Below are positions 6,557 through 50,943 of a DNA stretch of 64,000 bases, piece by piece; the stretch's first letter is position 1; each line of letters starts with the position of its first letter. The DNA is taken from the NCBI GenBank assembly GCA_031385045.1, contig JANNBC010000025.1, positions 18,511 through 82,510 on the forward strand, in the 5' to 3' direction. The translations under genes and the position numbers were made by a program. Under the pieces are notes generated by a model that ran no database searches, was not told the DNA's origin, and was given only the letters and a program-made list of their open reading frames with translations. The DNA comes from a bacterium (GTDB taxonomy: Bacteria > Bdellovibrionota_C > UBA2361 > CALJRW01).

Positions 6557-7657
6557 TTAGGAAGCTTTGCCAAGATTAATTTCCAATGGCAGGATACCAG
6601 CCTTGATCCATGCCAACTTCAGCTCAGCTACTTTCTCTAGATTATCACCAAAAGCTAATCCACAATCTCCACCACCAGCACCTGAGAACTTAGAGGTAAA
6701 GCCATGTTGCTCAGCCAAAGTAATCAAGCACTGGAGTTCTTTGGTAATTAATGGAACTTTGCTTACTTTGGCGAGCTCTTTTAATAGTAAATGATTATTT
6801 TTAAGTCCGCTAAGAATTTCTAAAAGCTGACTATTTTTCCAGTCCATGATTAATTTTTTGGTATTATTCGCAATCTTTTGGTAGAGCTGCTCAATAATTA
6901 GTGGATGATTTTTTTGAAATTCATTCATCTCTGTGATTAATTTTGTGCTACTGGCGGAGCAACCAGTAAACCCAGTTAAGATAATTAATCCCACTGGAAG
7001 TGTTAGCTTTTCAATAGAACAATTTGGCCATTCCAGTTGAACTAGCTGCTCTAATTTCGTAGAATTAATTTTATTTACTAACCACTTACTATCAAATGTC
7101 GAGTAGGCGATTACTCCCCCATAAACTGCTGTGGCAATATCTAATCCGGAGCCTAGCTGGTTTTGTGCTTGAAAATGACTAATAATTGCCAACTTAAAGG
7201 TGAGATCTTCTAAATTAATTAAAGTTTTTTTAGGATGGAATTGTTGTAGTAGAGCAGAAGTTGTGGCAACTGTAATACCAGCAGAAGATCCCAAGCCAAA
7301 TTTTATTTTACCAGACTCGCTTTCTATAATAGTTTCTGAGCTATTAGTAGTTAACTCAAATCCGGAATCTAGATTTAAGTAGCTGGCTACCGTTTCAATA
7401 CTAGCCTTAATAAATATAATTTGCTGGGAAATTGTTGGAGTGAGAACTTCTCCAAAAATAAGCTTTTGATTTTTAAGTTCGCCAGAGATTCGCAAGTTAA
7501 AGTCTGGTAAGTTTAGAATCACTTGTTGATCTTTGCGTGGTTTTAAAAAGACGTGAACAAAGCGATCAACACTAGCGACAATAACTGGGTTACCACTTTC
7601 TAGTACCGACCATTCCCCAGCAATTACTAGTTTTCCAGGAGCACTAACTTTTAGCAT
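6557..7657 (-). CDS. mvaK2: Phosphomevalonate kinase (GHMP kinase family)
   Basis: The N-terminus APGKLVIAGEWSVLESG matches the PMK motif GKLYWAGEYAILEPG. A GHMP ATP-binding loop KFGLGSSAG is present. The gene is adjacent to the diphosphomevalonate decarboxylase gene with a 1-nt overlap. Confidence 0.6.
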   Translation of the reverse strand: MLKVSAPGKLVIAGEWSVLESGNPVIVASVDRFVHVFLKPRKDQQVILNLPDFNLRISGELKNQKLIFGEVLTPTISQQIIFIKASIETVASYLNLDSGFELTTNSSETIIESESGKIKFGLGSSAGITVATTSALLQQFHPKKTLINLEDLTFKLAIISHFQAQNQLGSGLDIATAVYGGVIAYSTFDSKWLVNKINSTKLEQLVQLEWPNCSIEKLTLPVGLIILTGFTGCSASSTKLITEMNEFQKNHPLIIEQLYQKIANNTKKLIMDWKNSQLLEILSGLKNNHLLLKELAKVSKVPLITKELQCLITLAEQHGFTSKFSGAGGGDCGLAFGDNLEKVAELKLAWIKAGILPLEINLGKAS

Positions 7658-8667
7658 TATTCTAGGTGATGATTAATAACCGTGGCAGCAGAGCCGACAT
7701 TAGTATAAATAATTTCTTTTAGTCCCACTAGTTTGCCTAAATAGTTTTCCACTTTTAATTGATCTTTTTTCTGATATAAGATTTTCACTTGCGGACCAGC
7801 ATCGATTGTAAAGTATGATTCCAAACGATTATTTTCACGAAGCTCCACAATTGTATTGGTAATTAGTTTTGTTGCCTCATTCCAATAATTAATTGGTGGG
7901 GTAGAGGCAATCATTGTGGCATGCATTTTGAGAGCATTTTTCTCAGCGACGGTTCCCATTAAAGTAAAATTCTTACTCAGGATAGCCTGCTCCATATCTT
8001 GTAAGTCTTTTTTAACAGTATCAAGCCAAGCTGTTTGATAAATTGGACAAGTCTTGACTGTTCTTTGCATTCCTTCTCTTGAAGAATAAATCTTTTCTCC
8101 GGTTGCCGTAATGGCAATTGCAATGCAAAGTTCCGGCCAGTGTTGTTGATCAGCAATAAAACCAATTTCGGAATCTGAGCCATCAGGAGCAACTCCCATT
8201 TGCCAATAGTTAAATCCTCCTAAGATCGATCTAGTCGCTGAGCCAGAGCCCATTCTCGCCATCTGGCTTAGTTTTTTATAATCTAAACCAAGCCCAAGTG
8301 CTTCGTTAAGAGCAACACTTAGGGCGGCAAAGCCCGAAGCGGAAGAAGCTAAACCAGCGCTAGTAGGGAAATTATTTTTTGTAATAATCCTAAGTTTTTC
8401 AGTAAACTTAAACTTATAGCGCATAATTTTCAGGTAGCTATTAAAGTACTCCTGAAAAACTTTAGATTCTGGACTAATTTCTTGGTCATTTAATTTTAGA
8501 GAATCAATACTAAGTTTTGGATCTAAGTGGATTGTTGTGTGGCTTGCTAAGTTTGCCAGTGTCACGCTAATACTGGAATTTAGGGGTAAAATCAGATTTA
8601 GATCGCGTTTGCCCCAGTATTTCACAAGGGCAATGTTTGGATGGGCTAAGGCAGATACAATTTTCAT
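7657..8667 (-). CDS. mvaD: Diphosphomevalonate decarboxylase
   Basis: The N-terminal PNIALVKYWGKRD motif and a GHMP fold. It is 336 aa, typical for mevalonate diphosphate decarboxylase. Confidence 0.8.
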   Translation of the reverse strand: MKIVSALAHPNIALVKYWGKRDLNLILPLNSSISVTLANLASHTTIHLDPKLSIDSLKLNDQEISPESKVFQEYFNSYLKIMRYKFKFTEKLRIITKNNFPTSAGLASSASGFAALSVALNEALGLGLDYKKLSQMARMGSGSATRSILGGFNYWQMGVAPDGSDSEIGFIADQQHWPELCIAIAITATGEKIYSSREGMQRTVKTCPIYQTAWLDTVKKDLQDMEQAILSKNFTLMGTVAEKNALKMHATMIASTPPINYWNEATKLITNTIVELRENNRLESYFTIDAGPQVKILYQKKDQLKVENYLGKLVGLKEIIYTNVGSAATVINHHLE

Positions 8668-8915
8668 TAAATTATTATAAGATAAAATTTAATAATTGCT
8701 AAGTAGCTTTATTAGGATAATGTTAATTTAATTCCATCCCCGAGTTGCAAGTAAGACTTCAGGTAAGTCTTTGTTAGCTTACCTCAGGTAAGATTGCTAT
8801 AATATTCCAATACTTAACTAATAAAATCTCTAACTTAAAGCGAAGTCTCCCTTGATTTTTTGGATAATTAAATCTAGAATACCCGCGAATTCGTATTTAT
8901 AATTATCAAACATCC

Positions 8916-9457: not shown

Positions 9458-9964
9458 ATGAAGAACTACCCTGTATCCTCACGCGGATTTTCTCTAGTCG
9501 AACTGATGTTTAGCATCGCAACAGCTGGTGTTTTAGCATCAATGTCTTTAGGTCTTTTCTTTCAATATCAAGATCGATCTAGAACAGTTGAAATGGATAT
9601 GGCCTATCACGATATTAGAAATTCATCTTTTCTAGTAATGCAGAGTCTCTCCAAAGATGTCGCTAATCCAGTTTGTATTTGGCAATATGATCCCACTTCG
9701 GGAAGTCAGGGTGTGGCTTGTGATACCTCCACAGGTCAAAATATCTTAGAAGAAGCTTTGCCAATGAAAGATTCGCGAATTGTAATTCTTTCTAGTTTTA
9801 ATGCGACAGCTTCAACTAACGAATGGATACATACAACTTCAATCTTCCACTGTGATATCGCAAGTGGTGTTAATCATATCGATTACCAGAATACCTCTGA
9901 CGGAAGTTTTTATAATATTAGAACGCACGAAGATCCCACTAGTTTTGCAGTTCATTGTGCTTAG
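9458..9964 (+). CDS. Type IV pilin / pseudopilin-like protein (prepilin N-terminal methylation motif)
   Basis: The N-terminus SSRGFSLVELMFSIATAGVLASM matches the G-F-[TS]-L-[IV]-E prepilin peptidase cleavage/methylation motif followed by a hydrophobic helix. Confidence 0.6.
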   Translation: MKNYPVSSRGFSLVELMFSIATAGVLASMSLGLFFQYQDRSRTVEMDMAYHDIRNSSFLVMQSLSKDVANPVCIWQYDPTSGSQGVACDTSTGQNILEEALPMKDSRIVILSSFNATASTNEWIHTTSIFHCDIASGVNHIDYQNTSDGSFYNIRTHEDPTSFAVHCA

Positions 9965-9972
9965 CTTAGGAA

Positions 9973-12900
9973 TTAAAGTAGCTTCTTCCAAAGAGATTTT
10001 GATTTTTGGATATTAGTAATTGGTCCACTAAAAATAATTTCACCACCCAAGTCTCCAGCTCCCGGCCCCATTTCTATTAAATAATCAGAATATTTAATAA
10101 TTAAGGGGTCGTGTTCAATTAAAACTACACTATCACCACGATTAGTGATGTCTTTTAAGACTTTTAATAGCTTAAGAACATCTTGTTGGTGAAGGCCAAC
10201 GCTTGGTTCATCAAAAACATACAATGTATGTCCGCGGGGAGTTACGGCTAATTCTTCAGTTAATTTTAGTCGTTGTGCTTCACCACCAGAGAGTGTTGTT
10301 GATGTTTGTCCTAATGTTAGGTAGCCAAGGCCTAGATCACAGGCACTTTTTAAGAGTCGATAAATTTTAGGATAATTAGTAAATAGGTTTTTTGCTTCTT
10401 CAAAAGTTAAATTGAAAATTTCAGAAGCATTTTTATCTAAATACTTAATGCTTAATGTTTCGTCAGTATATCTTTTGCCCTGACAGAGTGGGCACTCAAT
10501 TTTAGCTTCAGCTAAAAAGCTCATCTCTAATTTCTGAGTCCCAGTACCATTGCATTCTGGACAACGGCCTCCAGTAGCTGAGTTATATGAAAAATAACTA
10601 GGCCCCCAACCACGAGTTTTTGCAAGGGGCATCTGAGCCAAAAGTTTTCGAATTTCGTCCCAGATTTTTAAATATGAGGCAGGAGTGGATCGTGAATTTT
10701 TACCAATCGGGGATTGATCTACAACTAGTAAGCGATCGATTGCTAGTTCTGTAGTAACCGAGGCTAGACTATTTTTCCAATGAAGATTTTTTAAGTTATC
10801 AATTGAATTAAGAAAAATATTATTTAGAAAGGTGCTTTTCCCAGATCCTGAGACGCCACAAATTGTTACTAGCGATTGAAGTGGAAAGGAGGCCTCCAGG
10901 GACTTAATATTATTAATAGCCTTGGAAGAGATTTTAACTAAAGGTTTATTCTCTATTGGGTTAGGAGACCAGTCAATTTGAGGGATTTTGTGAGTCGGAT
11001 ATTTTTTAACACTTCCATTATAAATAATCTGACCACCATCGCGACCTCCACCAGGGCCTAGTTCGATTAAATGATCGGCATAGTTAATTGTATCTTGATC
11101 ATGCTCGATTATATAAACAGAATTACCTTGATCTTTTAGTGTAGTAAATTCTTTTAATATTTTTCGATTATCATTCGGGTGTAATCCAGCACTTGGCTCA
11201 TCAAAGATATATAAAACACCATTTAGTGGGGAGCCCATGGAATTTGCTAACTTTAATCTCTGAAGTTCGCCCTTAGAAAGATCCTGACAACTGCGACTTA
11301 ATGGTAAATATTCTAAACCCAGACGTGTTAGTCGGTTAGTTCTAATTTTTATTTCAGAAATAATTGTATCGGCAATTTCTAATTGTTGCTCTGGAAACTT
11401 AATTTGTTCTAAAAAATTAGCTAGTTCAAGAGAATTTAATTTTGCTAGCTCAAAAATATTCTTTTTATTAATTTTAATATTTAGTGACGTTTGATTAATT
11501 CGGGTGCCCTGACAACTAGGACAGATTTTATCTGTAGCAGTTTTGCCGGAGCCAGAACATTTTACACAGCGACCGCGACGAGAATTAAAAGAAAAATCCT
11601 CCGGGTCAGGTTTTAGATATCCGCGATTACACTGAGGACAGCCACGTCTTGTACTTAGGATTTGATCTTGGCCCGCTACATTAGCAATGATATTCCCACC
11701 ACTCAAACTAATAATATCTCGAATAGCTTCAAGGATTAGATCTGCTGGGATTCGATTTGGGACAACTTTGGCATAAACAAATTCGATATTATGAACTTGG
11801 TTTCGACTAAGCCCTTCTTCAAAACGGCTAACTGGTCCAAAGATACCATCAACACGAACTTCTTCAATCTCGGATTTACGCGCCTGAATAAAAACGGGTC
11901 GATGATGGCCTTTCTTAGATTTAATAACTGGCACTAAAAGTTTAACAGTTTGCTCGCCAAACTGGAGGATCTTATTTAGAATTTGTTCCAAGCTAGAACT
12001 ACTTAATTCATATTCTGGATGATCAGGACAGTAAGGAGTGCCAACTTTCGCAAAGAGTAGTCTTAAAAAATTATAGATTTCACTAACAGTTCCGAGAGTA
12101 GAAAGTTTTCCAGGTTGGAATGTGTGCTGATAGACACAGATTGTTGGTCGTAAATTTTCGATGCTAGCAATCTGAGGCTTGGCTAATTCTTTAATAAATT
12201 GTCGGGCGTAGGGCGAAAGGCAATCCAAGTATTTTCTTTGTCCTTCGGCATAGACGATGTCCTTGGCAATCGTTGATTTTCCAGAGCCAGACACCCCAGT
12301 AAAAACAACAATCTCGTTATGTGGTATCTCCAGATCGATATTTTTTAAGTTATGTTCTTTCGCTGCGAATATTTTTAACTTACTAGAATCATGTTTGCTA
12401 GGTTTTTCCTTATCAAACTTTAACTTACTAGCTTGATATCTAGTAACATAACTTTGTAAATATTTAGCAGTTAAAGATTTCGTTTGATTTATTTTCTTTA
12501 AAAAGTCAGTAGGTGTTCCTTCTAGAACAACCTGCCCGCCATGCTTTCCACCCTCAGGTCCTAAATCAATAATCTGATCTGCTGCTAAGATAATATCTTG
12601 ATTGTGTTCAATACAAATAATTGAATGACCAGCATCGATCAATTCGTTAAAAACTAGTAATAGGTTTTTAACATCTTCCTGGCTCAGTCCGGTGGAAGGT
12701 TCATCAAATATTAATAGCGAATCTCCCCGAGTAGCTTTTTGAATAAATGGAACTAATTTTAAGCGTTGTGCTTCGCCACCAGAAAGCTGACTTAGCGGAT
12801 GACCTAAAGTTAGATGTCCCAGTCCTAATTTATTTAAACTTTGGCAAATGGCAAAAGCATCAAGGTGATTGATTAATAAATCCTGACATTCCGAAACTGT

Positions 12901-15234
12901 AGTTTTTAACCATTCGGCTACATTTCGATCTTGGTAGGTGACATCTAGTACGGAGTCTTGAAATCGTTGACCTAAGCAAAGATCACAGGTGACATAAACA
13001 TCACTTAAGAACTGCATCTCTTCTTTTAGATACCCAGCCCCCTTACAGTGTGGGCAGCGACCCCCCTCAACATTAAAAGAGAAAGTTGATTTGCTAAAAA
13101 GTTTTTGTTTGGCCAAAGGGCTATCGGCTAGTTCTTCTCGAATCATTTCCCAGAGCTTGCTATAAGTGGCAATATTTGAGCGAGGACTTTTAACAAGTGA
13201 ACTCTGATCTACTGCTAGTACTTGTTGAAATTGCTCCAGGCCTAGAACAGAAAACTTACTAGATGGATCTTGGCGTTGATTTTCCTGATAGGCTTTTAGA
13301 ATAACTTCAATTGCCAAACTACTTTTGCCACTTCCTGAAACCCCAGATAGAACAACTAAGCAGGAGAGTGGTATACGAAGGTCTATTTTTTTAAGATTCC
13401 TGACTCCTTCAACCTTGACAATTAGTTGACTAGGAGAACTTTTGCTATTCTTTTTGGGAGTTACTGGGATAAATTTATGCTTCCAATTACTTGGTGGCCC
13501 ATAGTAAACAACTTCGCCACCTAATTTCCCTGCTTTCGGGCCAAGGTGTAGGATTTGATCTGCTGCTAAGATACAATCGGGATCATGCTCAACCATTAGG
13601 ATACTATTTCCACGATTTTTTAATTCTTTTATTGCTTGCATTAAGCGTTCTGAATCCCGTGGGTGAAGGCCAACAGAGGGCTCATCTAAAACAAATTGGG
13701 TGGAAACTAATTCGCTACCAATTGCCGATACTAGATTGACTCGCTGAGTTTCTCCGCCTGATAAGGTCTTTGCTGGGCGGCTTAAGCTTAGGTAATCTAG
13801 CCCCAGATTGATCATCTGTTTAATCCTAGCAGTGCTTTGTTGAAAAACTGTTTCTAGTTCGAGAGATTTTGATTTGTTAACTAGTGGTTTTAAACCAGCA
13901 ATCCAATCTCCTAATTCGTTAATTGGTAGTTCACGGACTTCTGAGACATTCTGATTATTTAATCGAAACAGTAAGGCTTCAGACTTATTGCCACTTCCTT
14001 GGCAATCATCACAAATTACTGGAGAGCGGTATTTAGTAAGGTAGATTCGCACATAAGCTTTATAGGATTTACGCTCAATCTTTTTAAACCAGGGATTAAG
14101 TCCTAAATAACCTTTGCCTTCGTAATTAAAAATTAAATCTTTTTCCTCAGTAGATAACTTACTCCAAGGAAGATTGATTTTAATCTTATGATCGGAGGCA
14201 AACTTAATTAACTTTTCTTTTAAATTCTGAACGGCTGGTCCTTTCCAACAATCGACGGCATTTTCAATTAATGATAACTCTGGATCGATAATAATCTTTT
14301 TTGAATCCGGAATTAAATTAGCACCAAAACCTTTACAGTGTGGGCATGCTCCCAGTGGATTATTAGGGGAAAAAAGCCCAGGTTTGGGAATTGGGATTTT
14401 AATTTCTAAATTATCTTGAGCTGGATCCGAATAGAAAGAAGTAAAACGCTTAAAATTAATCTGTTCATTTTCTGGAATTGCTAGATAAGCAATTCCTTTT
14501 CCCAATTGATATGCCTGTTCAACTGCCTCAATTAAACGATGAGTTTTGCTTTGATTTGGTTTTAAGCGATCGATTAAAATATAAATTAAATCTTGATTGG
14601 CAAGTTGATTCAAATCTTCTGCTAATTTATACACATTAGCCGAATTGGGAATTAAAAAACGATTGTAACCCATCAGTTGTAAATTGTTTACTTGTTCCGC
14701 CAAGTCTTTTTTGGAAACTTTTTTGGCAGAGGATTTTTTCTTTGTTGTTAACTGGCAGGGAGCACAGATATATAAATAATCTGTTGCCAAGTTTAATCCT
14801 GAGATTAGTTCTGCGACTTCATTTGGTGAATGCTTTTGTAGAAGTTGTTGGTTAATTGGGGAATAGGGTAGTGCAAAATTGGCGAATAGAATTCCAAGAT
14901 AGTCATTTAGATCCGTTAAAGTTCCTACTGAAGATCGACTAGAATGGATTTTATTTTTTTGTTCAATAGCAATTGCTGGGCGAACATTCTCACTACTTTC
15001 TAAGTCCGGTTTTTTAACTTTGTCTAAGAATTGACGAACATATGAGGAAAACGTTTCTAAATAACGTCTTTGACCCTCGGCATAGATCGTATCAAAAGCT
15101 AAGGTTGATTTTCCCGAACCGGAGAGTCCTGTAACAGCAATTAACTGATCATGTGGAAGGGTAATACTTAAATCTTTTAAGTTATTTTCTTTGAGTCCAG
15201 TGAGTGATAAATGAAAATGTTTTTGTTCTGACAA
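9973..15234 (-). CDS. uvrA: Excinuclease ABC subunit A, tandem-duplicated (UvrA-UvrA fusion, 1753 aa)
   Basis: Four ABC ATPase Walker A sites (GLSGSGKSTLAFDTIYAEGQRRY, LSGVSGSGKSSLA, FTGVSGSGKSTIAKDIVYAEGQRKY, CGVSGSGKSTF). There are four LSGGE signature motifs and several CxxC zinc-finger pairs. This is two complete UvrA units in one frame. Confidence 0.8.
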   Translation of the reverse strand: MSEQKHFHLSLTGLKENNLKDLSITLPHDQLIAVTGLSGSGKSTLAFDTIYAEGQRRYLETFSSYVRQFLDKVKKPDLESSENVRPAIAIEQKNKIHSSRSSVGTLTDLNDYLGILFANFALPYSPINQQLLQKHSPNEVAELISGLNLATDYLYICAPCQLTTKKKSSAKKVSKKDLAEQVNNLQLMGYNRFLIPNSANVYKLAEDLNQLANQDLIYILIDRLKPNQSKTHRLIEAVEQAYQLGKGIAYLAIPENEQINFKRFTSFYSDPAQDNLEIKIPIPKPGLFSPNNPLGACPHCKGFGANLIPDSKKIIIDPELSLIENAVDCWKGPAVQNLKEKLIKFASDHKIKINLPWSKLSTEEKDLIFNYEGKGYLGLNPWFKKIERKSYKAYVRIYLTKYRSPVICDDCQGSGNKSEALLFRLNNQNVSEVRELPINELGDWIAGLKPLVNKSKSLELETVFQQSTARIKQMINLGLDYLSLSRPAKTLSGGETQRVNLVSAIGSELVSTQFVLDEPSVGLHPRDSERLMQAIKELKNRGNSILMVEHDPDCILAADQILHLGPKAGKLGGEVVYYGPPSNWKHKFIPVTPKKNSKSSPSQLIVKVEGVRNLKKIDLRIPLSCLVVLSGVSGSGKSSLAIEVILKAYQENQRQDPSSKFSVLGLEQFQQVLAVDQSSLVKSPRSNIATYSKLWEMIREELADSPLAKQKLFSKSTFSFNVEGGRCPHCKGAGYLKEEMQFLSDVYVTCDLCLGQRFQDSVLDVTYQDRNVAEWLKTTVSECQDLLINHLDAFAICQSLNKLGLGHLTLGHPLSQLSGGEAQRLKLVPFIQKATRGDSLLIFDEPSTGLSQEDVKNLLLVFNELIDAGHSIICIEHNQDIILAADQIIDLGPEGGKHGGQVVLEGTPTDFLKKINQTKSLTAKYLQSYVTRYQASKLKFDKEKPSKHDSSKLKIFAAKEHNLKNIDLEIPHNEIVVFTGVSGSGKSTIAKDIVYAEGQRKYLDCLSPYARQFIKELAKPQIASIENLRPTICVYQHTFQPGKLSTLGTVSEIYNFLRLLFAKVGTPYCPDHPEYELSSSSLEQILNKILQFGEQTVKLLVPVIKSKKGHHRPVFIQARKSEIEEVRVDGIFGPVSRFEEGLSRNQVHNIEFVYAKVVPNRIPADLILEAIRDIISLSGGNIIANVAGQDQILSTRRGCPQCNRGYLKPDPEDFSFNSRRGRCVKCSGSGKTATDKICPSCQGTRINQTSLNIKINKKNIFELAKLNSLELANFLEQIKFPEQQLEIADTIISEIKIRTNRLTRLGLEYLPLSRSCQDLSKGELQRLKLANSMGSPLNGVLYIFDEPSAGLHPNDNRKILKEFTTLKDQGNSVYIIEHDQDTINYADHLIELGPGGGRDGGQIIYNGSVKKYPTHKIPQIDWSPNPIENKPLVKISSKAINNIKSLEASFPLQSLVTICGVSGSGKSTFLNNIFLNSIDNLKNLHWKNSLASVTTELAIDRLLVVDQSPIGKNSRSTPASYLKIWDEIRKLLAQMPLAKTRGWGPSYFSYNSATGGRCPECNGTGTQKLEMSFLAEAKIECPLCQGKRYTDETLSIKYLDKNASEIFNLTFEEAKNLFTNYPKIYRLLKSACDLGLGYLTLGQTSTTLSGGEAQRLKLTEELAVTPRGHTLYVFDEPSVGLHQQDVLKLLKVLKDITNRGDSVVLIEHDPLIIKYSDYLIEMGPGAGDLGGEIIFSGPITNIQKSKSLWKKLL

Positions 15235-15264
15235 GGTAATTCGATCTTAGAAAGTTATCTTTGC

Positions 15265-16230
15265 TTATTCTATTGTTTGATTTAAAGCATACGCGGAAAA
15301 GGCTGAACCGTAAAATGTAGACTGATCAAATAAAATCTTTTTGCTATTTGTCGCAGTGTCATGGATGGATGTCTTCCATCTCCAGATATAATCTTTCTCC
15401 ATGTGTTTAGCGGAAAGTTCTATCACTAATTTTTGTGAGACGTTAACGTCGATGCCATTTTCAAATGGAAAGAAGACACTGCCGTATACTTGGTTTTTAG
15501 CATCTGGCCCACAGGAATAGGAAACTGTTGAAGTTAGTTCACAGTCAAACCAAGCAAAAAACCCAAATAATGTTTCGTTTGAGCCAGTGAAGCTTACAGT
15601 TGAACGATGAGAATAGTCTTGGATCTTTGTATAATCGAGCTGACACCAGAGGCTTGGTTTTGCTGAAAGCATTTCCTGCTTGATTGGTAAGGGGTAGAAG
15701 GTATTGCAGAGATATTTTTCGTAGGCCTTGGTCGTAAATGGAAATTTTTGGTTTAAAAACGGTCTAACTTTCTGATTGAAAATATTTTTATCGCGACAAG
15801 GAGCCAAGTAGATCTTATCAATACTTGGTAGAAGTTTACCTGTTGGTTTTAAGAATTTCTCTTGTGCTAATTTCATGATCTTTAAATTATCTTCGTAGAA
15901 GGGAAGTTTTCCTCTTAAGTCGGCAATAATCAGATCAACTTGCGAAAAATTTAAATTCTCAATTTTTTCTTCATAGAATTCCACTCGGTCCTCAAATTTA
16001 TTTTCTTTCACGAGCTCTCGAGCGATTTGAATCGCAGGGTTAGGTTCGACAGCGATTACTTTTTTAGCTCCGAGAGAACATGCCAGGAGCGTAAAGCCTC
16101 CAGTGCCTGCGCCTAAGTCTAGGACAATAGTTTCTGGTGTAATAATTTCCGCTAATGCTTTAGCATAAGCCGGAACTCTTACTGGGTCAGCTAACATTTG
16201 AGAGAAGTGGCGAGGACTATAAGTATTCAT
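15265..16230 (-). CDS. Class I SAM-dependent methyltransferase, PRMT-like
   Basis: Motif I VLDLGAGTGGFTLLACSLGA and post-I VIAVEPNP. VDLIIADLRGKLPFYED resembles the PRMT motif II/double-E loop (VDIIISEWMGYCLFYES). LKPTGKLLPS resembles PRMT motif III. A roughly 150-aa C-terminal beta-rich region is consistent with a PRMT barrel. Confidence 0.55.
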   Translation of the reverse strand: MNTYSPRHFSQMLADPVRVPAYAKALAEIITPETIVLDLGAGTGGFTLLACSLGAKKVIAVEPNPAIQIARELVKENKFEDRVEFYEEKIENLNFSQVDLIIADLRGKLPFYEDNLKIMKLAQEKFLKPTGKLLPSIDKIYLAPCRDKNIFNQKVRPFLNQKFPFTTKAYEKYLCNTFYPLPIKQEMLSAKPSLWCQLDYTKIQDYSHRSTVSFTGSNETLFGFFAWFDCELTSTVSYSCGPDAKNQVYGSVFFPFENGIDVNVSQKLVIELSAKHMEKDYIWRWKTSIHDTATNSKKILFDQSTFYGSAFSAYALNQTIE

Positions 16231-16335
16231 TAGATAGATTATTACTGGTGATCTTTTGAAGGATCAACTGCTAGTCTAGGTTATTAATCAGATAATGAGA
16301 ACTAAATTTAGAGTAAGAGAGGATTGGAACAAATA

Positions 16336-16476
16336 CTATGTTTGCATACCAAAAAAATCAGCTGACATTGAGCCACCAAATTTAGTTAACTCTTTAAGCG
16401 AGCCATATTTAATTAGTTTAGGCTTTTGATAAGTTTTTTTTTCTTTTTTAGTATCTGGGGTTTTCTTATCTTCCAT
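16336..16476 (-). CDS. Unannotated 46-aa precursor-like peptide MEDKKTPDTKKEKKTYQKPKLIKYGSLKELTKFGGSMSADFFGMQT (lasso-type leader motif)
   Basis: Found by hand translation of the 286-bp gap between the PqqD-like gene and the methyltransferase gene. ATG at 16476 is the first start after an in-frame stop, and TAG is at 16338-16336. The Lys-rich leader contains Y16-x2-P19-x-L21-x3-G25-x5-T31-K32. A 14-aa C-terminal segment FGGSMSADFFGMQT follows. It lies on the same strand as, and between, the RRE and the MTase. Confidence 0.5.
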   Translation of the reverse strand: MEDKKTPDTKKEKKTYQKPKLIKYGSLKELTKFGGSMSADFFGMQT

Positions 16477-16516
16477 AGGTTACATTATAATTTAAAATTT
16501 AAGTTATGTGAAGCAA

Positions 16517-16801
16517 TTAAATGAGAGTAATAACCTCGGCTTCCAGTAGGCCTTGAATCAGGTTAATTAAGTCTTGCTGTAAATCTGCTTCATTAACCTC
16601 GTAATCTTCCGCTAGTAATTTAGATGCTTCTAGGATAGAGGAGGACTCTACTAGCCTCATGTAAAAAGCATAGCCGGTGGAATCTAGGCCATAGTAGTTG
16701 TTATTCTTCAAATTTAGCAACACGCAGGTATCATCAAGTTGTTTAACTAGGACATCGTCTTGAGCTACAACTTGACTTTGTAGATTGATATTCACAGCCA
16801 T
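16517..16801 (-). CDS. PqqD-family peptide chaperone / RiPP recognition element (RRE)
   Basis: 94 aa. VLVKQLDDTCVLLNLKNNNYYGLDSTGYAFYMRL...LAEDYEVNEADLQQDLINLIQGLLEAEVI follows the PqqD (PF05402) pattern. That pattern is 'dgevvLLnlesgeyygLNetgarIWelL...ydvdeeeleaDvlaFleeLleagli'. Confidence 0.75.
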   Translation of the reverse strand: MAVNINLQSQVVAQDDVLVKQLDDTCVLLNLKNNNYYGLDSTGYAFYMRLVESSSILEASKLLAEDYEVNEADLQQDLINLIQGLLEAEVITLI

Positions 16802-16806
16802 TTAAA

Positions 16807-17592
16807 TTACTCTAAAGTGTATTTCTCTAGAGAAATATCAATTCCACCTTCGGAGATGTACTTGGCAATGATATTAGCATTAAAGCAACCAGGGAATTCC
16901 GGACAAAGTACAACTGTGAAACTAGAATCTTCTTTAATATCTTCTTTTTTAATTGTTTTGGTAAAGATAATTTCCTCAGGATTTCCTTTTTTGAAAACCT
17001 TTAAAAGTAAGCTTTGATAATCTGTTTCTTCAGTAGAAAAACTACAAAACAATTGACCACTTTGCGGGGCAAATAAAACCTGATCTGATCCGGCTTGGTA
17101 CGCTGGTATATTCTTGCCTTTAAGTTCGCAGTTACCAGAAAATAGACCTGTCACAATATTTGTTTCTTCGTAAGTTGGAGGTAGCACAAGATCAACTGGT
17201 AATGGCTCAGTTGGTAAATTAGCCTCAGAGGCAAATGTTAATGTCGCATTTAAGCAGTCCTGAATCCCATCACGAATTAATTGCTTGGTGGCTATTTGGG
17301 ATTCCATTTTCCGCTTAAGTTTATTACTAGACTCTTTTTTTAGGTCAGCTTTTAGAAGTTTGATTTCTTTTACTACCTGTTTTCGAAGTTTTAGGGCTTG
17401 GCGGTCAGTAAACTCCCGGACATTTTTTTCCAGTCCATCCTGTGTAAAAGTTTTAATCAAGACAGAATTGCTATTTTCTTTGCAAAAATAAGACTTAGTT
17501 TTACTAATTATTGCAATTCTTTGATCTTCAGCCTGGGCACTTAGACTTAACAAAAGGACTAATGGTAATATGTATTTTAGTTTTATGTTCAC
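16807..17592 (-). CDS. Secreted hypothetical protein (signal peptide, 5 Cys in C-terminal half)
   Basis: MNIKLKYILPLVLLLSLSAQA is a signal peptide. No recognisable catalytic motif. It is co-directional with, and 5 nt upstream of, the PqqD-like gene. Confidence 0.45.
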   Translation of the reverse strand: MNIKLKYILPLVLLLSLSAQAEDQRIAIISKTKSYFCKENSNSVLIKTFTQDGLEKNVREFTDRQALKLRKQVVKEIKLLKADLKKESSNKLKRKMESQIATKQLIRDGIQDCLNATLTFASEANLPTEPLPVDLVLPPTYEETNIVTGLFSGNCELKGKNIPAYQAGSDQVLFAPQSGQLFCSFSTEETDYQSLLLKVFKKGNPEEIIFTKTIKKEDIKEDSSFTVVLCPEFPGCFNANIIAKYISEGGIDISLEKYTLE

Positions 17593-17741
17593 TTTCTTTT
17601 GATTATAGCCTACTAATTGAGTTTCTTAAATAATCTTTTTTGATTGTTAGAACCTTAATTTAAGGTGTATAATAAGATTATTAAGTTCATTTCGGTTTAT
17701 TAAAGTATTACTTTAATTCTGCCGAAAGTCATTACTATATA

Positions 17742-20700
17742 ATGTCTCATAAGTCGTTTCTCGCTCTTTTTTTATTTTTCCTAGCTAATCTGCTGGAAGC
17801 TCAGGCTCCAGGGAACGTTACAGCTAACTTTCCGCTTTGGTTAAAGGCTAATGCTGGGACGTCTACCACAACAGATGGTGTGGGTGTTCAGACATGGACG
17901 GATCAGGCAACAGCATTGGGAGGAAGTAATAATGCTACTCAAGCTACAGCAGCCAATCGACCACTCTATAAAAGTCTTACTCCAATTAATTTTAATCCTT
18001 ACATTCGTTTTGATGGAGTTAGTGATCGCTTTCAGATTGCCTCCAATACTAGCATTAATAACGTAGCCAGTCTTACTAAGTCTGTATATTATGCCTTTCG
18101 AACTGGTAGTAGCGTGATTTCTCCTGTCAGGCAGTTAATTTATAAAGAACGAAATCATCAGTCGGGTTTTAACTTATACCTATATAACGGGAATCTTTAC
18201 TGTTCAGCTTTTAAAACAAATACAGCACCAACATGGCCATGGAAGGGGAATAGTGTTGCCGCCACGCCTAACACTACTTATGTTGTAAGTTTTATTATGA
18301 ATGGGACTGCAGCTAATGCTGGAACGATTGCTTGCTATGTTAATAGTTCTCAGTTTGCGAATCTTACAGGTGTTGGTCAAATTCAAGCTGTAAATGCCAT
18401 TAGTAATATAGGTTCTAGAGAATTACGAACGAACTATGAAGGTGTTCAGGTTGCAAATGCTAATGCTGATTTTTCCGCCGTCGATTTTAGCGAAATTGCT
18501 TATTATAATGCTGCTCATACAACGGCAGAGCGCAATAAAATTGAGTCCTATCTGGGGGTAAAGTATGGAGTAACTCTTAATCAAACTGTTGCTAATAATT
18601 ACACCAACAGTGCTGGAACTGTAATTTTTAATGCTACAGGTACGCATAATTCTTATCGCAATGATATTGCCGGTATTATGATTGATACAAATTCTGGCCT
18701 TAGTCAATTACAGTCGAAATCTGTCAATACTGATGCAATCGTAACAATGTCCACAGCTTCTGCCATGGCGAATACTGAATCACTGCTCTGGGGGAATGAC
18801 AACGACGATAATGGTGTGATTCAGGAAATCTATACGGGGATTCCTGCTGGCGTTGCCGCTAGATTAGATCGAGTTTGGAGAGCCGATCAAACTGGTGATG
18901 TTGGGACTGTTACGATCACTTTTAACTTAAATGGCATTGCAGTGTCTGGAACCTCTGCCAGTCAATTTCGTTTGCTGGTTGATTCGGTTAATAGTGATTT
19001 TACATCAGGTGCTACCCAAGTAAATGCTGCCACATATTCTGGTGGAATTGTAACTTTTAATAATGTTGATTTTACTGGGGATGATTATTTTACATTAGTA
19101 ACTTATGTCACACCTAGTCCTCCTACCGTTACGTTAACTACTAATTCTAGTACTATTTTGGAAAATGGTGGGGTGGCAACTCTGACAGCAACCCTAAGTA
19201 ATATTTGGACATCCGCCGTAACTGTTAATTTAAGTTATAGTGGAACAGCTACAAACGTGACTGATTATTCTAGATCAGGAGCATCTATTACAATCCCTAT
19301 TAATTCCTTAAGTGGTTCAGTTACGCTTACGGCAATTGATGATGCTTTTAGTGAAGGAGCGGAAACTGTCATTACCGATATTAGTTCGGTTTCTGGAGGT
19401 GGTACGGAGAGCGGGGTGCAACAAGTTACAGTCACTATTACTGATGATGAGCCTGTTAATAATGCTTGCAGTGGTCAGGAGCGTATATTCACTACGGAAT
19501 TAGCAAGTGGTGATGTTAATACTTATAGTATTGCTGGGGTTTATCAAGCAACCTCAACCTCAGCCTATACTCAAAACTATGAAATGATAATCGATCCAGA
19601 TAATAATTATCGTTATCTAGCATCCTATGGCAACCTTCGAATTACTAGAGCTAACTTTGATGGAACAGGGGAGATAACTCTTTTTAATACATCTCTGTAT
19701 TCAGCAAATCCTCCTTTTCAAGTTACAATTAATCCAAACCAAGGCAAAATTTATTGGACAGATTGGGCAGCAAATACAGCTAACATTTTTTGTGCCAATC
19801 TTGATGGTACGGGAACACCAGTTGCCATCGCTACGGGATTAAATTACCCGACTGGTATGCAGATCGATAAAAACACAGGGCGTTTATATGTTTACTTTGG
19901 TCTTAATGCGCCTATTACCTTAACTACAGCTCTGACTAACGGAAGTTGTGGTGCAATTACTTTAGCAACACTTTTAAATACGGGACTAGACTTAGCTTAT
20001 AATTTAACAATCGATCCTCCAGGAAATCGACTTTTCTTTGTAGATTACAACTCACAAACGATCAAAAAGGTTAATACAGATGGTACTTCTTTAGTTACTC
20101 TCCGAACTTTAACTGCTCCTGGGGACCAGATGCGGGATATCGTTTATAATAAGAATACTAATAACCTTTACTGGGTTCACACTAATGGTGTGATTCAGCG
20201 AGCCTTGGCCGATGGAACTGGTGGGATTACAACTGTTGTTGCCAGTGGTCAGCCTGATAGTCGTTCGATTGATATTTGTGTTGATGATGCTGCTCCACGT
20301 CTAAGTCGTTTTTATAGTACTTCAGCTAACAGTCGCTATTGTCCGATTGTTCCAATTAATAGCATTGATATTCGTGCGGTTTATGATGAATCGGTTGTTG
20401 CAGGTTCGACGATCACGGTGCAATTAAACAATGGGGCGAATGTCGTTTTGAGTTCAATCACAGGGAATGAAATATCTGGAACTTATACTGTCGGTGCTAC
20501 TGGTAGTGGTCAAACAATTGCTGATTTATCTGTTGCCAGTATTGTTAGTGAGTCTGTTTTAGATGTTAATAATAATACGCGAGTTAATTCTACAGTTCCA
20601 GCTAGTCCAAATAACTTAGGAGATTCTTCCAATATTGTTGTTGATACTTCTGCTCCTGTGATTACAGAAGTAACGCCCGTAGCTTCTCCAACAATAAATC

Positions 20701-22388
20701 GTAATCCAACATATGTTATTAACTCTAGTGAGGTGGCAACAATTTCCTTTGGTGGTTCATGTAATAGTGTTACCACTAGTTTAGTAGCGGGGAATAACAC
20801 AATTACTTTGGATTCTAATGGCGCGGGAGGACAGTTAGCTGATGGGGTTTACAGTAACTGTACGATAACAGTGACCGATGCTTCTGCTTGTAATACTACG
20901 AATTATAATATTTCTGCTTTTACAGTGGCAGCGACAGTTCCAACTGTCACTCTTAGTCGAAATTTTGCAACGATTAATGAAGCTGCTGGAGTAGCAACTT
21001 TTACAGCCACCTTGATTAATACCTATGCCTTAGCAACGACTGTTAATCTTAGTTTTAGTGGAACAGCAGGCGGTAGTGATTATTCTGCTTCTAATACTCA
21101 GATTGTGATTCCAGCACTTAGTACTACTGGGACGATTACAGTTACAGCAACTGAGGATCTTTTGGTTGAAAGTACTGAAACAGTCATCGTTGATATCTCA
21201 ACAGTTACAAATGGAACTGAAAGTGGTGTGCAACAGGCTTCAACTTCAATCTTAGATAATGATTCTCCATCTTCTGTAACACTTTCAACAAACCTCAGTA
21301 GTATCTCAGAAGCTGGCGGAGTAGCAATTTTAACCGCGACACTAAATACTCTTAGTGCATTAAATGTAACAGCAAATTTAACCTACACGGGAACGGCAGC
21401 TAATGGCACTGATTATACAGCCGCGACTAGTATCGTAATTACGGCAGGTAGTCTTTCCGCTAGTATTAATTTAACCGGACTAGAAGATGCTACTTTTGAA
21501 GTCACAGAAACAGCTATCGTTGATATTAGTAGTGTTACTAATGGTACAGAAGCTGGTGTTCAGCAAGTAACAGTGAGTATTACAGAGGATGCTGTTTGTA
21601 ATCAGCCTGCTTGGCCGGCTCCTCATGGATTAACCAAATATATTGCCATGAGTTTTGAGCGAACTTTTGCTTCCACTAATGGATATGTGCCGCCAAGTGG
21701 TGATGCTTTTGATACTTACCTTGCTCGAAACCAAACTCAAAAAGATGCTAAGCGTGATAGTGCCTATGCCTTTTTCTTAAGCGAGTATGGACTTGATTTT
21801 GCAAATGATGGAATTTCTTGCCCAGGGGGAATTTGTATTATGAATGGGCCTGATGCTCAAGTCATGCTTCGTTACATAAGTTTTGATAGTAATTTTCAAG
21901 CTAAGATTAATGCTGCAAGTAGTTACAAAGTTGATACTTCTGGTGGTGATTTAAGAGCTGGTATTTATCAGGTACTTACTTTTGATACTGAAAATATGTC
22001 TGGCAATGATGGTACAATTTTAAATGGTGCTTGGGGTGGAGGCCCCGGTAAACTAGTTCCTCGTGGTACAGTTTTAGAGTACGGTGAATATCAACTCCAA
22101 ATTTTATATCCTTGCACAGATGCCCCTAATCCAAACTTTACTAGAACCGATACCTTTTTAGTTGAATTTCAAAGTCAGAAACCAAGTTTAGCTGATTTTA
22201 ATGAGGATAACGGAGCTTTCTTTCTTGATATTCCACAAATTTTTGAATATGAAATTACAAATGTAACTCCTAATTTTCCTACAGGATTTGTGAATGGTGA
22301 GATAATTGGTCGGACTGAGATTAGGCAAGATCCTGCTAGTCCTTATAACGTTACCGCTATTTCTAGTGTTACTTTGACAGTTCCTTAG
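17742..22388 (+). CDS. Giant secreted surface protein (1548 aa) with LamG-like N-terminal region, three Calx-beta-like repeats and a YWTD/NHL-type beta-propeller
   Basis: A signal peptide MSHKSFLALFLFFLANLLEAQA. Three repeats of about 105 aa each end in VTVTITDDE, STSILDNDS or VTVSITEDA (the Calx-beta signature). Propeller blades show KIYWTDW, RLYVYF, RLFFVDY and NLYWVH motifs. The protein is very Thr/Ser/Asn/Gly-rich. Confidence 0.75.
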   Translation: MSHKSFLALFLFFLANLLEAQAPGNVTANFPLWLKANAGTSTTTDGVGVQTWTDQATALGGSNNATQATAANRPLYKSLTPINFNPYIRFDGVSDRFQIASNTSINNVASLTKSVYYAFRTGSSVISPVRQLIYKERNHQSGFNLYLYNGNLYCSAFKTNTAPTWPWKGNSVAATPNTTYVVSFIMNGTAANAGTIACYVNSSQFANLTGVGQIQAVNAISNIGSRELRTNYEGVQVANANADFSAVDFSEIAYYNAAHTTAERNKIESYLGVKYGVTLNQTVANNYTNSAGTVIFNATGTHNSYRNDIAGIMIDTNSGLSQLQSKSVNTDAIVTMSTASAMANTESLLWGNDNDDNGVIQEIYTGIPAGVAARLDRVWRADQTGDVGTVTITFNLNGIAVSGTSASQFRLLVDSVNSDFTSGATQVNAATYSGGIVTFNNVDFTGDDYFTLVTYVTPSPPTVTLTTNSSTILENGGVATLTATLSNIWTSAVTVNLSYSGTATNVTDYSRSGASITIPINSLSGSVTLTAIDDAFSEGAETVITDISSVSGGGTESGVQQVTVTITDDEPVNNACSGQERIFTTELASGDVNTYSIAGVYQATSTSAYTQNYEMIIDPDNNYRYLASYGNLRITRANFDGTGEITLFNTSLYSANPPFQVTINPNQGKIYWTDWAANTANIFCANLDGTGTPVAIATGLNYPTGMQIDKNTGRLYVYFGLNAPITLTTALTNGSCGAITLATLLNTGLDLAYNLTIDPPGNRLFFVDYNSQTIKKVNTDGTSLVTLRTLTAPGDQMRDIVYNKNTNNLYWVHTNGVIQRALADGTGGITTVVASGQPDSRSIDICVDDAAPRLSRFYSTSANSRYCPIVPINSIDIRAVYDESVVAGSTITVQLNNGANVVLSSITGNEISGTYTVGATGSGQTIADLSVASIVSESVLDVNNNTRVNSTVPASPNNLGDSSNIVVDTSAPVITEVTPVASPTINRNPTYVINSSEVATISFGGSCNSVTTSLVAGNNTITLDSNGAGGQLADGVYSNCTITVTDASACNTTNYNISAFTVAATVPTVTLSRNFATINEAAGVATFTATLINTYALATTVNLSFSGTAGGSDYSASNTQIVIPALSTTGTITVTATEDLLVESTETVIVDISTVTNGTESGVQQASTSILDNDSPSSVTLSTNLSSISEAGGVAILTATLNTLSALNVTANLTYTGTAANGTDYTAATSIVITAGSLSASINLTGLEDATFEVTETAIVDISSVTNGTEAGVQQVTVSITEDAVCNQPAWPAPHGLTKYIAMSFERTFASTNGYVPPSGDAFDTYLARNQTQKDAKRDSAYAFFLSEYGLDFANDGISCPGGICIMNGPDAQVMLRYISFDSNFQAKINAASSYKVDTSGGDLRAGIYQVLTFDTENMSGNDGTILNGAWGGGPGKLVPRGTVLEYGEYQLQILYPCTDAPNPNFTRTDTFLVEFQSQKPSLADFNEDNGAFFLDIPQIFEYEITNVTPNFPTGFVNGEIIGRTEIRQDPASPYNVTAISSVTLTVP

Positions 22389-48136: not shown

Positions 48137-48898
48137 ATGAAAAAATATTTTCTGCTTGTTATGCTAGTCTGTAGCTGGCAATTTGTTTGGGCCGAAGTGC
48201 CAACTGAAAATGTGCCTACTATTTTGGAAAATACTGTCGCTAGTCCACAGCCCGCAGTTACAGCAACTCCAGTTCCGACTCCAGTAGTCCTGGCGGAAGA
48301 AGTTCCTGCGATTACTCCAGAGATTAAAACTTCTACAGTACCGAATGAGGGTAAAGTTGTACCAGTGGAGGCGGAAGAAGGTGCAGGGGAAGAGATTATT
48401 AATGAAGAGATCTTGGGGAAATCGGAAGAGACTCTCACTGAAAAGACAAATTCTAATGCTGAGAAATTGAATACTAAACCTACTGAGCGAATTATCTTAG
48501 GTTGGGTTGAGCCTATTTCATTAGGTGAAAAGAACTTATCGATTGATTCTAAACTAACTCCGGGGACAGCTGGAAATGCCTTACATGCGGATAATATTGT
48601 AATGGTTAAGAAGCCTAATGGTACTAAATGGGTTGATTTTGACGTGACGGACAAGCTTGGTCGTACTGTTCGTTTCCACAAGAAAGTCATTAGTATGAGA
48701 GAAAAGACTGATCCCAAGAAGAATCAATATAAAGTTACCTTAGAATTTTGTCTTAACATGCAACATTTTAAATTAGATTTTATGATTAGCGATCGAAGCA
48801 ATTTTGAACATCCTGCTCGAATTGGAAGAGATAGCCTAGCAGGACATTTTATTGTTGATCCGGGATTAACTAAAACCTCAGTTCCAAGTTGTAAATAA
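48137..48898 (+). CDS. Secreted retropepsin-like 'ATP-dependent zinc protease' domain protein (RimK-associated family), catalytic motif degenerate
   Basis: A signal peptide, a Pro/Thr/Val/Glu-rich linker and a C-terminal domain with GWVEPISL...DSKLTPGTAGNALHA...ARIGRDSLAGHFIVD. The paralog next door has DSKVDTGADTCSVHA. Confidence 0.55.
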   Translation: MKKYFLLVMLVCSWQFVWAEVPTENVPTILENTVASPQPAVTATPVPTPVVLAEEVPAITPEIKTSTVPNEGKVVPVEAEEGAGEEIINEEILGKSEETLTEKTNSNAEKLNTKPTERIILGWVEPISLGEKNLSIDSKLTPGTAGNALHADNIVMVKKPNGTKWVDFDVTDKLGRTVRFHKKVISMREKTDPKKNQYKVTLEFCLNMQHFKLDFMISDRSNFEHPARIGRDSLAGHFIVDPGLTKTSVPSCK

Positions 48899-48910
48899 TT
48901 TCTAAAGATT

Positions 48911-49423
48911 TTGCTGATGTTTTTAAAAAGATTATTTTTAGCACTAATTTTAACTTGTAGCGCATGTGCGACCACTGAGGTTAATGCACCAAAAGTTCGG
49001 AGTATTGGCTGGGTTGAGCGTATTCAGATTTATCCTTTTAATATGCAGCTTGATTCTAAAGTTGATACTGGAGCGGATACCTGTTCTGTTCACGCCGAAG
49101 AAATTGAAAATTTTAAAAAAAATAAAAAGGACTATGTGCGATTTAAGATGGTTAATCGCTATGGTCTAACAAAAGAAGTTGAGCGTAAAGTCTTACGTTT
49201 AACTAAGATCAAGACTAAGGAAGGTGGTTTTCAGATTAGACCAGTTGTGAATCTAGGTCTTTGTATCGATGATTATATCGAATATGTTGCCTGTAACCTG
49301 GTTGACCGCTCTAATTTTGACTATCCAGTACTTGTCGGCCGTAATTACCTAGCAGGACATTTTCTAGTCAATTCTTCAGAGACTTACAAGTCTGAACCAA
49401 ATTGTGATTTAAGTGAGAAATAA
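48911..49423 (+). CDS. Retropepsin-like 'ATP-dependent zinc protease' domain lipoprotein (intact DTGA motif)
   Basis: The lipobox is LTCSAC. GWVERIQIYPFNMQLDSKVDTGADTCSVHA and VLVGRNYLAGHFLVN are present. Confidence 0.6.
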   Translation: MLMFLKRLFLALILTCSACATTEVNAPKVRSIGWVERIQIYPFNMQLDSKVDTGADTCSVHAEEIENFKKNKKDYVRFKMVNRYGLTKEVERKVLRLTKIKTKEGGFQIRPVVNLGLCIDDYIEYVACNLVDRSNFDYPVLVGRNYLAGHFLVNSSETYKSEPNCDLSEK

Positions 49424-49428
49424 TTTAA

Positions 49429-50937: not shown

Positions 50938-50943
50938 GAATCT

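Follow-up and report, generated by a model that had tools for sequence, protein, structure and literature searches.

Lasso peptide clusters of the kinase/nucleotidyltransferase type, whose products are RiPPs (peptides made on ribosomes and then modified post-translationally), have already been described (PMC9266682, PMC10368454). In the Bsf system of Bradymonas, the recognition protein B1 makes the kinase act faster on the linear precursor, besides aiding the leader protease B2, and a B1 tyrosine is reported to touch Thr(−2) and to help build the S2 pocket of B2 (PMC10368454). The methyltransferase StspM acts on a linear precursor ahead of B1, B2 and the cyclase C (PMC9266682), and triculamin (triA/C/D/T) was presented by its authors as the first non-canonical lasso biosynthetic gene cluster (PMC12070363). 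Here we analyze a locus in a 64-kb stretch of a Bdellovibrionota_C genome (assembly GCA_031385045.1, contig JANNBC010000025.1, positions 18,511 to 82,510; hereafter the window), which encodes a lasso-type recognition protein, a lasso-family precursor and a methyltransferase (MT) with the fold of protein arginine methyltransferases (PRMTs). This trio descends, by loss of genes, from a lasso cluster of the kinase/nucleotidyltransferase type, and it is under long-term purifying selection. Throughout, B1 denotes the RiPP recognition element (RRE), B2 the leader protease, C the cyclase, A the precursor, K the HPr-kinase-like gene and N the nucleotidyltransferase; L-numbers are surveyed loci.

An earlier note on this DNA had called four genes here, and all four are present as minus-strand open reading frames (ORFs) in the ORF listing. 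In the order 261-aa gene, B1, A and MT they are separated by gaps of 5, 40 and 105 bp.

16807-17592, minus strand: 261-aa secreted protein, GTG start, Sec-type signal MNIKLKYILPLVLLLSLSAQA
16517-16801, minus strand: B1, lasso-type RRE of the PqqD family (PF05402), 94 aa
16484-16512, minus strand: promoter-like element of the A gene, TTCACA-17-TATAAT, 11/12 match
16336-16476, minus strand: A, lasso-family precursor (NCBIfam lasso_leader_L3), 46 aa
15265-16230, minus strand: MT, PRMT-fold class I S-adenosylmethionine (SAM) methyltransferase (Pfam and family profile), short form, 321 aa

Descent from a complete lasso cluster

A 5.8-billion-protein collection holds 47 relatives of the window MT. 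The locus of one that is 53% identical (L003) is a complete lasso cluster, and L004 is its 89% twin. Both comprise B2, B1, an Asn-synthase-type cyclase, a precursor (45 aa in L003), an HprK-related kinase-like K, the MT and a convergent NTP_transf_5 gene N; their B2 passes NCBIfam lasso_biosyn_B2 (48.5 versus a cutoff of 33), and the top NCBIfam match of their cyclase is a lasso cyclase model. Against the L003 order (B2, then B1-C-A-K-MT, then N), the window lacks C in the gap between B1 and A, K in the gap between A and MT, and the flanking B2 and N.

The same reduced arrangement recurs. A syntenic locus (L001; MT 66% identical) in the Bdellovibrionota metagenome-assembled genome (MAG) JTS-AC222 (GCA_041740355.1) shares the four genes and their flanks, including uvrA, dksA, mevalonate-pathway genes and a giant adhesin. 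Two short contigs from independent metagenomes (L093 and L094), with MTs 66-68% identical to that of the window, carry a C-terminal PqqD fragment, 24 bp, A and then MT, with no C or K. The MTs of the window, L001 and L094 share 65-68% mutual identity and form a clade that is sister to the full-type L003 and nested among the full-type L089 and L095; this placement fits a single old loss event. The window trio is therefore a reduced derivative of a cluster with the ancestral order seen in L003, and it is common to three Bdellovibrionota-type lineages. A metagenome scan with the alignment of close-clade MTs found nothing nearer than 38%. Descent from ordinary lasso clusters explains what had appeared to be an orphan pairing of an RRE with a methyltransferase.

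Between the window and L001, synonymous divergence (dS, NG86 method) is saturated, ranging from about 1 to undefined, and all cluster ORFs are intact. Nonsynonymous divergence (dN) is 0.28 for MT, 0.37 for B1 and 0.05 for the precursor, and housekeeping proteins of the flanks have 75-97% identity. When members of the reduced clade are paired, the final 31 precursor codons show 9-15 synonymous versus 1-4 non-synonymous changes, compared with 11-16 versus 5-10 in full-cluster pairs, such that the reduced clade is at least as constrained. Y-17, P-14, L-12, T-2 and the ring Asp are unchanged across the reduced clade, as in the full clusters. Because the ORFs are intact at saturated dS, the precursor shows this codon bias and its −10 box is conserved, selection must have kept the trio, which is no relic in decay.

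The precursor peptide and its promoter

The 46-aa ORF, which the earlier note had read as a lasso-type peptide with a matching leader, does pass NCBIfam lasso_leader_L3 (25.5 versus 19), and it lies just under lasso_cyano (31.9 versus 33). It consists of the leader MEDKKTPDTKKEKKTYQKPKLIKYGSLKELTK and the predicted core FGGSMSADFFGMQT. Leader residues Y16-x-x-P19-x-L21...G25...T31 reproduce the YxxPxL...T(−2) motif, and an Asp stands at core position 8 (FGGSMSAD), within positions 7-9, where a lasso precursor needs Asp or Glu. Cut according to the T-2 rule, the peptide would form an F1-D8 ring; cleavage after Phe could instead yield a G1-D7 ring. The core contains neither Arg nor Lys. The last 23 residues of the window precursor are identical to those of the L003 precursor (YGSLKELTKFGGSMSADFFGMQT), L003 and L004 have the same core, and a peptide-query search found ten homologous precursors with the common core FGGSM[SAT]ADFFGMQ[TSGA].

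Lasso cores are normally hypervariable. Across the window, L003, L088, L089 and L095, the core is nearly invariant while the cyclases of its clusters are only about 29-31% identical and the B1 proteins 32-47%. The complete clusters with the FGGSMSADFFGMQT-type core (L003 1-6500 and 11961-17018; L004; L088; L089/L090) are also embedded in exopolysaccharide (EPS) loci, surrounded by genes for a Wzy_C polymerase, several GT1/GT2/GT4 glycosyltransferases, Poly_export and AAA_31/BY-kinase-like proteins, which suggests that this lasso peptide is linked to EPS biology. A core that is nearly identical despite about 30% cyclase identity, together with the EPS context, hints at a conserved physiological target of the peptide rather than an arms-race antibiotic.

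The element TTCACA-17-TATAAT is the best promoter-like element in the region and lies in the 40-bp gap before A. Its TATAAT −10 box is unchanged in all four reduced loci (window, L001, L093 and L094), and in the full clusters L003, L004, L088 and L089 a TAGAAT/TATAAT box likewise stands 6-8 nt ahead of the start codon of the precursor gene. The −10-like hexamers lie at 16484-16489 in the window and upstream of positions 9520 (L001), 133 (L093), 8910 (L003), 10001 (L088) and 9411 (L089). In the window the box ends 8 nt before the ATG. The promoter-like element may thus serve the precursor gene, and a −10 box at 6-8 nt from the start codon implies an mRNA that may be leaderless or nearly so, without a Shine-Dalgarno sequence.

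The recognition protein B1

The 94-aa protein passes the Pfam PqqD model PF05402 (45.1 bits versus a cutoff of 23.4, E=1.2e-11), as expected from its earlier assignment as a PqqD-family RRE; against NCBIfam lasso_PqqD_Bac it scores 42 bits, under the cutoff of 80. Among solved structures its best matches are the lasso recognition proteins TbiB1 (E=1.6e-6) and TfuB1 (E=9.5e-6), along with an entry annotated as a lasso peptide biosynthesis PqqD family chaperone, whereas PqqC/D matches at only E=0.87. No pqqA, pqqB, pqqC or pqqE genes of pyrroloquinoline quinone biosynthesis stand beside it, the neighbors being the precursor, MT, secreted protein and uvrA. In the alignment, the tyrosine of strand beta3 (NNYYGLD) falls on that of TfuB1 (GEYWQLN). 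B1 is 46% identical to that of the complete cluster L003 and 53% identical to its L001 ortholog. These matches make it a lasso-type B1.

The methyltransferase as a lasso accessory

A scan of one genome per GTDB species with an alignment of 7 MT sequences brought up 352 candidate relatives. For the top 80 loci, the neighboring genes were classed by jackhmmer families seeded from annotated clusters. These 80 loci are mostly from Pyrinomonadaceae and other Acidobacteriota, and also from cyanobacteria, Verrucomicrobiota, Myxococcota and others. Distant MT homologs in Acidobacteriota (about 30-38% identity) have the same cluster architecture. A cyclase lies within 7 kb of MT in 49 of the 55 species-genome loci with at least 5 kb upstream, and the same 55 loci have a PqqD gene near MT in 48 cases, a kinase-like gene in 51, a nucleotidyltransferase in 42 and B2 in 28. 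In 73 loci, a precursor with a YxxPxLxxYGxxxxxT leader is found about 1 kb upstream of MT. Precursor homologs on long contigs (L088, L089/L090) belong to clusters that have the full B2-B1-C-A-K(-MT)-N set and share the core type, and because L088 is a full cluster without a methyltransferase, the MT is an accessory gene.

Judged by its gene neighborhoods, the MT is thus a predicted tailoring enzyme, widespread as an accessory of kinase/nucleotidyltransferase-type lasso clusters. Since it recurs inside such clusters, an RRE paired with a PRMT-like MT is not a separate RiPP class, and the suggestion that the MT fills the place of a core enzyme has to be abandoned, the cyclase being close by in 49 of the 55 loci.

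B2 is absent within about 10 kb in 19 of the 44 cyclase-bearing MT loci. The loci without a detected B2 are mainly Pyrinomonadaceae with the core type NVGPKGNLDGGGGAAAGPKTG and include L015, L020, L025-L027, L029, L030, L036, L037, L040-L042, L044, L046, L053, L061, L082 and L083. In L036, Pfam gives the order B1-C-A-K-MT-ABC-N and no Transglut_core3. The cyclase of that long-read MAG is divided between two overlapping frames at 7335-8850 (a GATase part and an Asn_synthase part), probably by a frameshift or assembly error.

Further MT loci have no cyclase. At 8969-11747 of L014, on a 903-kb contig of an Acidobacteriota MAG, lie K, a long-form MT and a precursor reading …YEAPRLKVYGDIIALT followed by KGNGKLAVSLDGFSHILKT, with a convergent subtilase adjoining; no B1, B2 or C occurs within 10 kb, and K-MT-A thus gives a second and independent case of an arrangement that has no cyclase. 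MT without a cyclase is also seen in L013, L057 and L079. In L071 the cyclase seems to be missing between B2 and A, probably as an artefact of masking or ORF filtering.

Fold and active site of the methyltransferase

The 321-aa protein passes the Pfam models Methyltransf_31, PrmA and Methyltransf_25, and as a single sequence it falls just below the cutoffs of PRMT_C (24.4 versus 27) and PRMT5_C (24.8 versus 30.3). A profile of 31 MT family sequences, however, matches PRMT1, 8, 2, 6, 3 and CARM1 in the PDB, with E values from ~1e-53 to ~1e-48, along positions 9-273, spanning both the Rossmann domain and the beta-barrel; the fold is therefore PRMT-like, as had been proposed. The SAM motif VLDLGAGTGG is intact. 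Its Pfam list at E<=1 contains PrmA, PRMT_C, PRMT5_C and generic class I families, and none of the known lasso MT families (PCMT, O-methyltransferase).

The residues by which PRMTs hold arginine are replaced family-wide. In a comparison of 84 MT family sequences with yeast Hmt1 (in agreement with the 1g6q alignment), the double-E loop SEWMG..E has become SDLRG: the first Glu is Asp in 84/84, and Trp-Met is Leu-Arg, with the Arg in 80/84. The second Glu is variable (Q33/E21/G12/D8...). The THW loop is replaced by x[IV]Y, with His changed to Ile or Val in 82/84 and Trp to Tyr in 84/84. Across 73 MT-associated cores no basic residue is universally conserved, and many cores have no conserved Arg. 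The family thus retains the PRMT fold without the guanidinium-binding loops. Because the arginine-binding residues are replaced and the window core lacks Arg and Lys, we infer that the acceptor is not arginine; here the earlier label of a PRMT-like enzyme, if taken to mean arginine methylation, would mislead.

An anionic group near the methylation site is suggested by the invariant Arg, which stands where PRMTs have an acidic loop. Our best guess, put forward solely as a hypothesis, is that the acceptor would be an anionic group such as the C-terminal carboxylate, which is favored because no other acceptor is shared by all cores and because StspM, with a different fold, provides a precedent. 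A phosphate or sugar installed by K and N is the alternative acceptor.

The MT occurs in a short form (31 sequences, including that of the window) and a long form (46 of 77) with a C-terminal extension of about 70 aa. The extension, for example the last ~70 aa of L005 5389-6531, carries the conserved pattern …GxIDxxILxxMxGxxxLGEIAxxLxxxFPxRF…LSxKYS. The idea that it is a fused RRE was dropped after hhalign against 56 PqqD proteins returned a probability of 1%.

Absence of B2, C, K and N from the window

The earlier note had found no lasso B2 or cyclase in the 64 kb, and tblastn, family hidden Markov models (HMMs) and Pfam all agree. Searching the whole window by tblastn with B2, C, K and N of a sister cluster gave a best E of only 0.16 and no remnants. 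With filters off (--max), an HMM of 69 cyclases had a best E of 1.8 in the window and one of 35 B2 sequences a best E of 0.45; HMMs built from 70 kinases and 60 nucleotidyltransferases found no N, and the sole K match was a P-loop artefact on UvrA. Pfam assigned unrelated functions to 19 further window ORFs, including all those of 450-600 aa, with no cyclase or B2 among them. Nor were B2 and C found in the 21 kb of the syntenic L001, where a kinase match beside MT proved to be a P-loop false positive on UvrA. Of the genes that mark a lasso cluster, then, the window has the precursor and B1 and neither B2 nor C; it also has no adjacent K or N, the pair that marks phosphorylated lasso clusters, whereas its sister clusters have both.

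A homolog search seeded with the L003 cyclase (E<=1e-20) retrieved that protein and an 89% twin and nothing more. It is too insensitive to show that the genomes of the window and L001 lack an orthologous cyclase, and that reading was rejected: it missed the same-clade cyclases of L088 and L089, which at about 30% identity would be expected at E~1e-41 to 1e-49. These two share only 5-6 five-residue words with the L003 cyclase.

The secreted protein and other neighboring genes

Relatives of the 261-aa protein are rare, numbering just 8 in 1.84 billion representatives; it has seven invariant Cys and belongs to no Pfam or NCBIfam family. Its homolog in L092 (42% identical) is the divergent neighbor of an ortholog of the giant adhesin (DUF8202/Calx-beta, 55% identity); the gene on its other side is convergent and unrelated, and B1, A and MT are not there. 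In the window the corresponding gene is the divergent upstream flank, encoding a 1548-aa Calx-beta/LapA-type giant protein (adhesin) at 17742-22388. The two genes form a conserved divergent pair (window 16807-17592/17742-22388; L092 3141-8783), and their products may be a functional pair. The 261-aa gene thus probably belongs with the adhesin and not with the RiPP unit, contrary to its earlier inclusion in the operon; the L092 synteny reduces the self-contained island proposed at that time from four genes to three (B1, A and MT). Because only 5 bp separate them, B1 is possibly co-transcribed with the 261-aa gene.

An AlphaFold (AF2) model of the 261-aa protein (predicted local distance difference test score 79) has two beta-sandwich-like modules connected by a long helical hairpin, and Foldseek found no PDB match to it at E<=0.001. 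As a substitute for B2 or C this protein is ruled out by the synteny, by the non-enzymatic look of the model and by the lack of a fold match; nor could a protein exported to where there is no ATP do the work of the cyclase.

The downstream flank is a UvrA-like gene (9973-15234, minus strand, 1753 aa). Its product, a tandem-duplicated UvrA, is roughly double the normal length, and the L001 copy (11000-16261) is 87% identical and of equal length. At 48137-51831 (plus strand), 32 kb from the trio, two PF05618 "ATP-dependent Zn protease" genes, a seven-transmembrane (7TM) inactive-transglutaminase gene (PF14402/PF14400) and an ATPgrasp_ST ligase gene (PF14397) form a peptide-modification cassette of the known amidoligase type; nothing evident ties it to the trio. 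A scan of window positions 15000-17800 with Rfam gave no match.

Proposed pathway and alternatives

The explanation that we favor, tentatively and with somewhat less than even confidence, is B1-guided methylation of the linear precursor followed by lasso maturation through unlinked B2 and C. The precursor would be transcribed from its own strong promoter, and its YxxPxL leader would be bound by B1. The MT, recruited via B1 and the leader, would methylate a non-arginine site of the precursor while this is still linear; removal of the leader and threading of the macrolactam would then fall to B2 and C encoded elsewhere in the genome, this supply in trans being the most conjectural part of the scheme. 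The remaining B1, A and MT would have come to lie between uvrA and the adhesin-associated gene. Guidance by B1 is proposed because of the analogy with Bsf B1, which acts on a linear precursor. Speaking for B2 and C in trans are the retention of the lasso determinants in the precursor and of the B1 Tyr, and the many cyclase loci in which B2 is unlinked (19/44).

Several points weigh against this proposal. Neither B2 nor C was found within the 64 kb. The losses of C, K, B2 and N look clean and selective and the clade has persisted, as would be expected were the trio self-sufficient. A literature search found no described lasso system in which B1 and A stand apart from B2 and C. The methyl acceptor is itself a guess, and if a phosphate or sugar from K and N were the real substrate, the MT of the window would be left without one.

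It is possible, though rather unlikely, that B1-A-MT is instead an autonomous minimal RiPP pathway yielding a linear methylated peptide, with B1 as the leader-recognition subunit of the MT and the leader cut by a generic protease or kept. Such a free-standing pathway would have arisen by reductive evolution, its RRE-dependent methylation giving a linear peptide with a conserved, possibly endogenous or signaling, role in predatory Bdellovibrionota; this too we consider unlikely, to the same degree. The pattern of loss agrees with it: four genes are cleanly gone and three are kept as a unit, under purifying selection, in three lineages at about 66% MT identity; B2 and C are missing from both the window and the 21 kb of L001; L014 offers an independent cyclase-less case; and the separation of B1 and A from B2 and C has no described counterpart in lasso systems. 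B1 proteins are known to speed the tailoring of linear precursors (PMC10368454), and the window-clade MT, a short form without the ~70-aa extension, plausibly depends on a separate B1. However, ordinary clusters with a cyclase contain short-form MTs as well, so that the short form is not specific to the reduced state, there is no exporter or protease nearby, and the full conservation of T(−2) and the ring Asp is unexplained without a protease or cyclase to read them. Both alternatives offered by the earlier note, B2 and C in trans or a system of RRE plus MT, are thus still live, but the second no longer as a RiPP type of its own, as the trio descends from a lasso cluster.

RREs are common to many RiPP classes. 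On this ground the trio might have been captured by another pathway, with a non-lasso (e.g., RRE-dependent) maturase elsewhere, or the MT might have an additional protein substrate. The MT active site is unlike that of all characterized PRMTs, which leaves room for another chemistry, and the window does contain the ATP-grasp/7TM-transglutaminase/Zn-protease operon. We nevertheless regard capture as improbable: the closest solved relatives of B1 are specifically lasso B1 proteins, the precursor keeps lasso-specific features, nothing connects the distant operon with the locus, and in 49 of 55 genomes the MT goes with a lasso cluster.

That the trio is a non-functional fragment decaying after deletion of the core enzymes is very improbable, for although the class-defining enzymes are missing locally and B1 is the fastest-evolving gene of the neighborhood (53% identity versus 87% for UvrA), the three ORFs have stayed whole in three lineages although dS is saturated, dN being far lower, the precursor changes are mostly synonymous, the −10 box is invariant, and neutral decay over such a distance would have destroyed the 321-codon ORF.

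Significance and comparison with known systems

Two things are new to the literature searched: a PRMT-fold MT with a remodelled, non-arginine site as a recurrent lasso accessory, whose product would be a new lasso modification, and a clade that retains only the RRE, precursor and MT under strong purifying selection. If B2 and C act in trans, this would be a clear split lasso pathway that mining tools demanding co-located B and C genes would miss; if they do not, it would be the first lasso-derived pathway to shed its class-defining enzymes and a minimal system for RRE-directed methylation. In either case, the small size of the trio would allow it to be tested directly in a heterologous host.

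The eukaryotic type I PRMTs (PRMT1/Hmt1, PRMT3, PRMT6, CARM1) share with the window MT the Rossmann domain and beta-barrel, at E~1e-53 over ~265 positions. They differ in the active site and setting: the window MT has D-L-R-G in the double-E loop, the His and Trp of the THW loop are replaced, the core is without Arg, and the context is a bacterial RiPP locus. No description of a PRMT-fold MT in lasso clusters was found, reviews to mid-2026 giving only the carboxyl methylation of StspM/LasF and aspartimide formation by protein isoaspartyl methyltransferases (PIMTs).

With StspM/LasF (lassomycin-type C-terminal carboxyl methylation) and the PIMT type (cellulonodin-2, lihuanodin), the locus has in common SAM-dependent methylation as a lasso tailoring step, and the order of StspM, in which the linear precursor is methylated first, is the order proposed for the window. 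StspM, however, is modelled on mitomycin 7-O-methyltransferase and the PIMTs are isoaspartyl methyltransferases, whereas the window MT has the PRMT fold; StspM/LasF and PIMT clusters also contain B2 and C, both of which the window lacks. Triculamin resembles the locus as a lasso pathway without class-typical genes, but there the cyclase is kept and B1 and B2 are gone, while the window is the inverse, with B1 kept and the cyclase and B2 gone.

The closest likeness is to the kinase/nucleotidyltransferase-type clusters of paeninodin, pseudomycoidin and Bradymonas bsf (bsfA/B1/B2/C/D/K/N), which share the split B1 RRE and the YxxPxL leader; the sister clusters of the window resemble phosphorylated lasso clusters further in having an HPr-kinase-like K and an NTP_transf_5 N. 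The window differs in lacking K, N, B2, C and D, and the paeninodin, pseudomycoidin and bsf systems in turn lack a PRMT-fold MT. Set beside them, the locus acts as would the tailoring half of a lasso cluster of the kinase/nucleotidyltransferase type.

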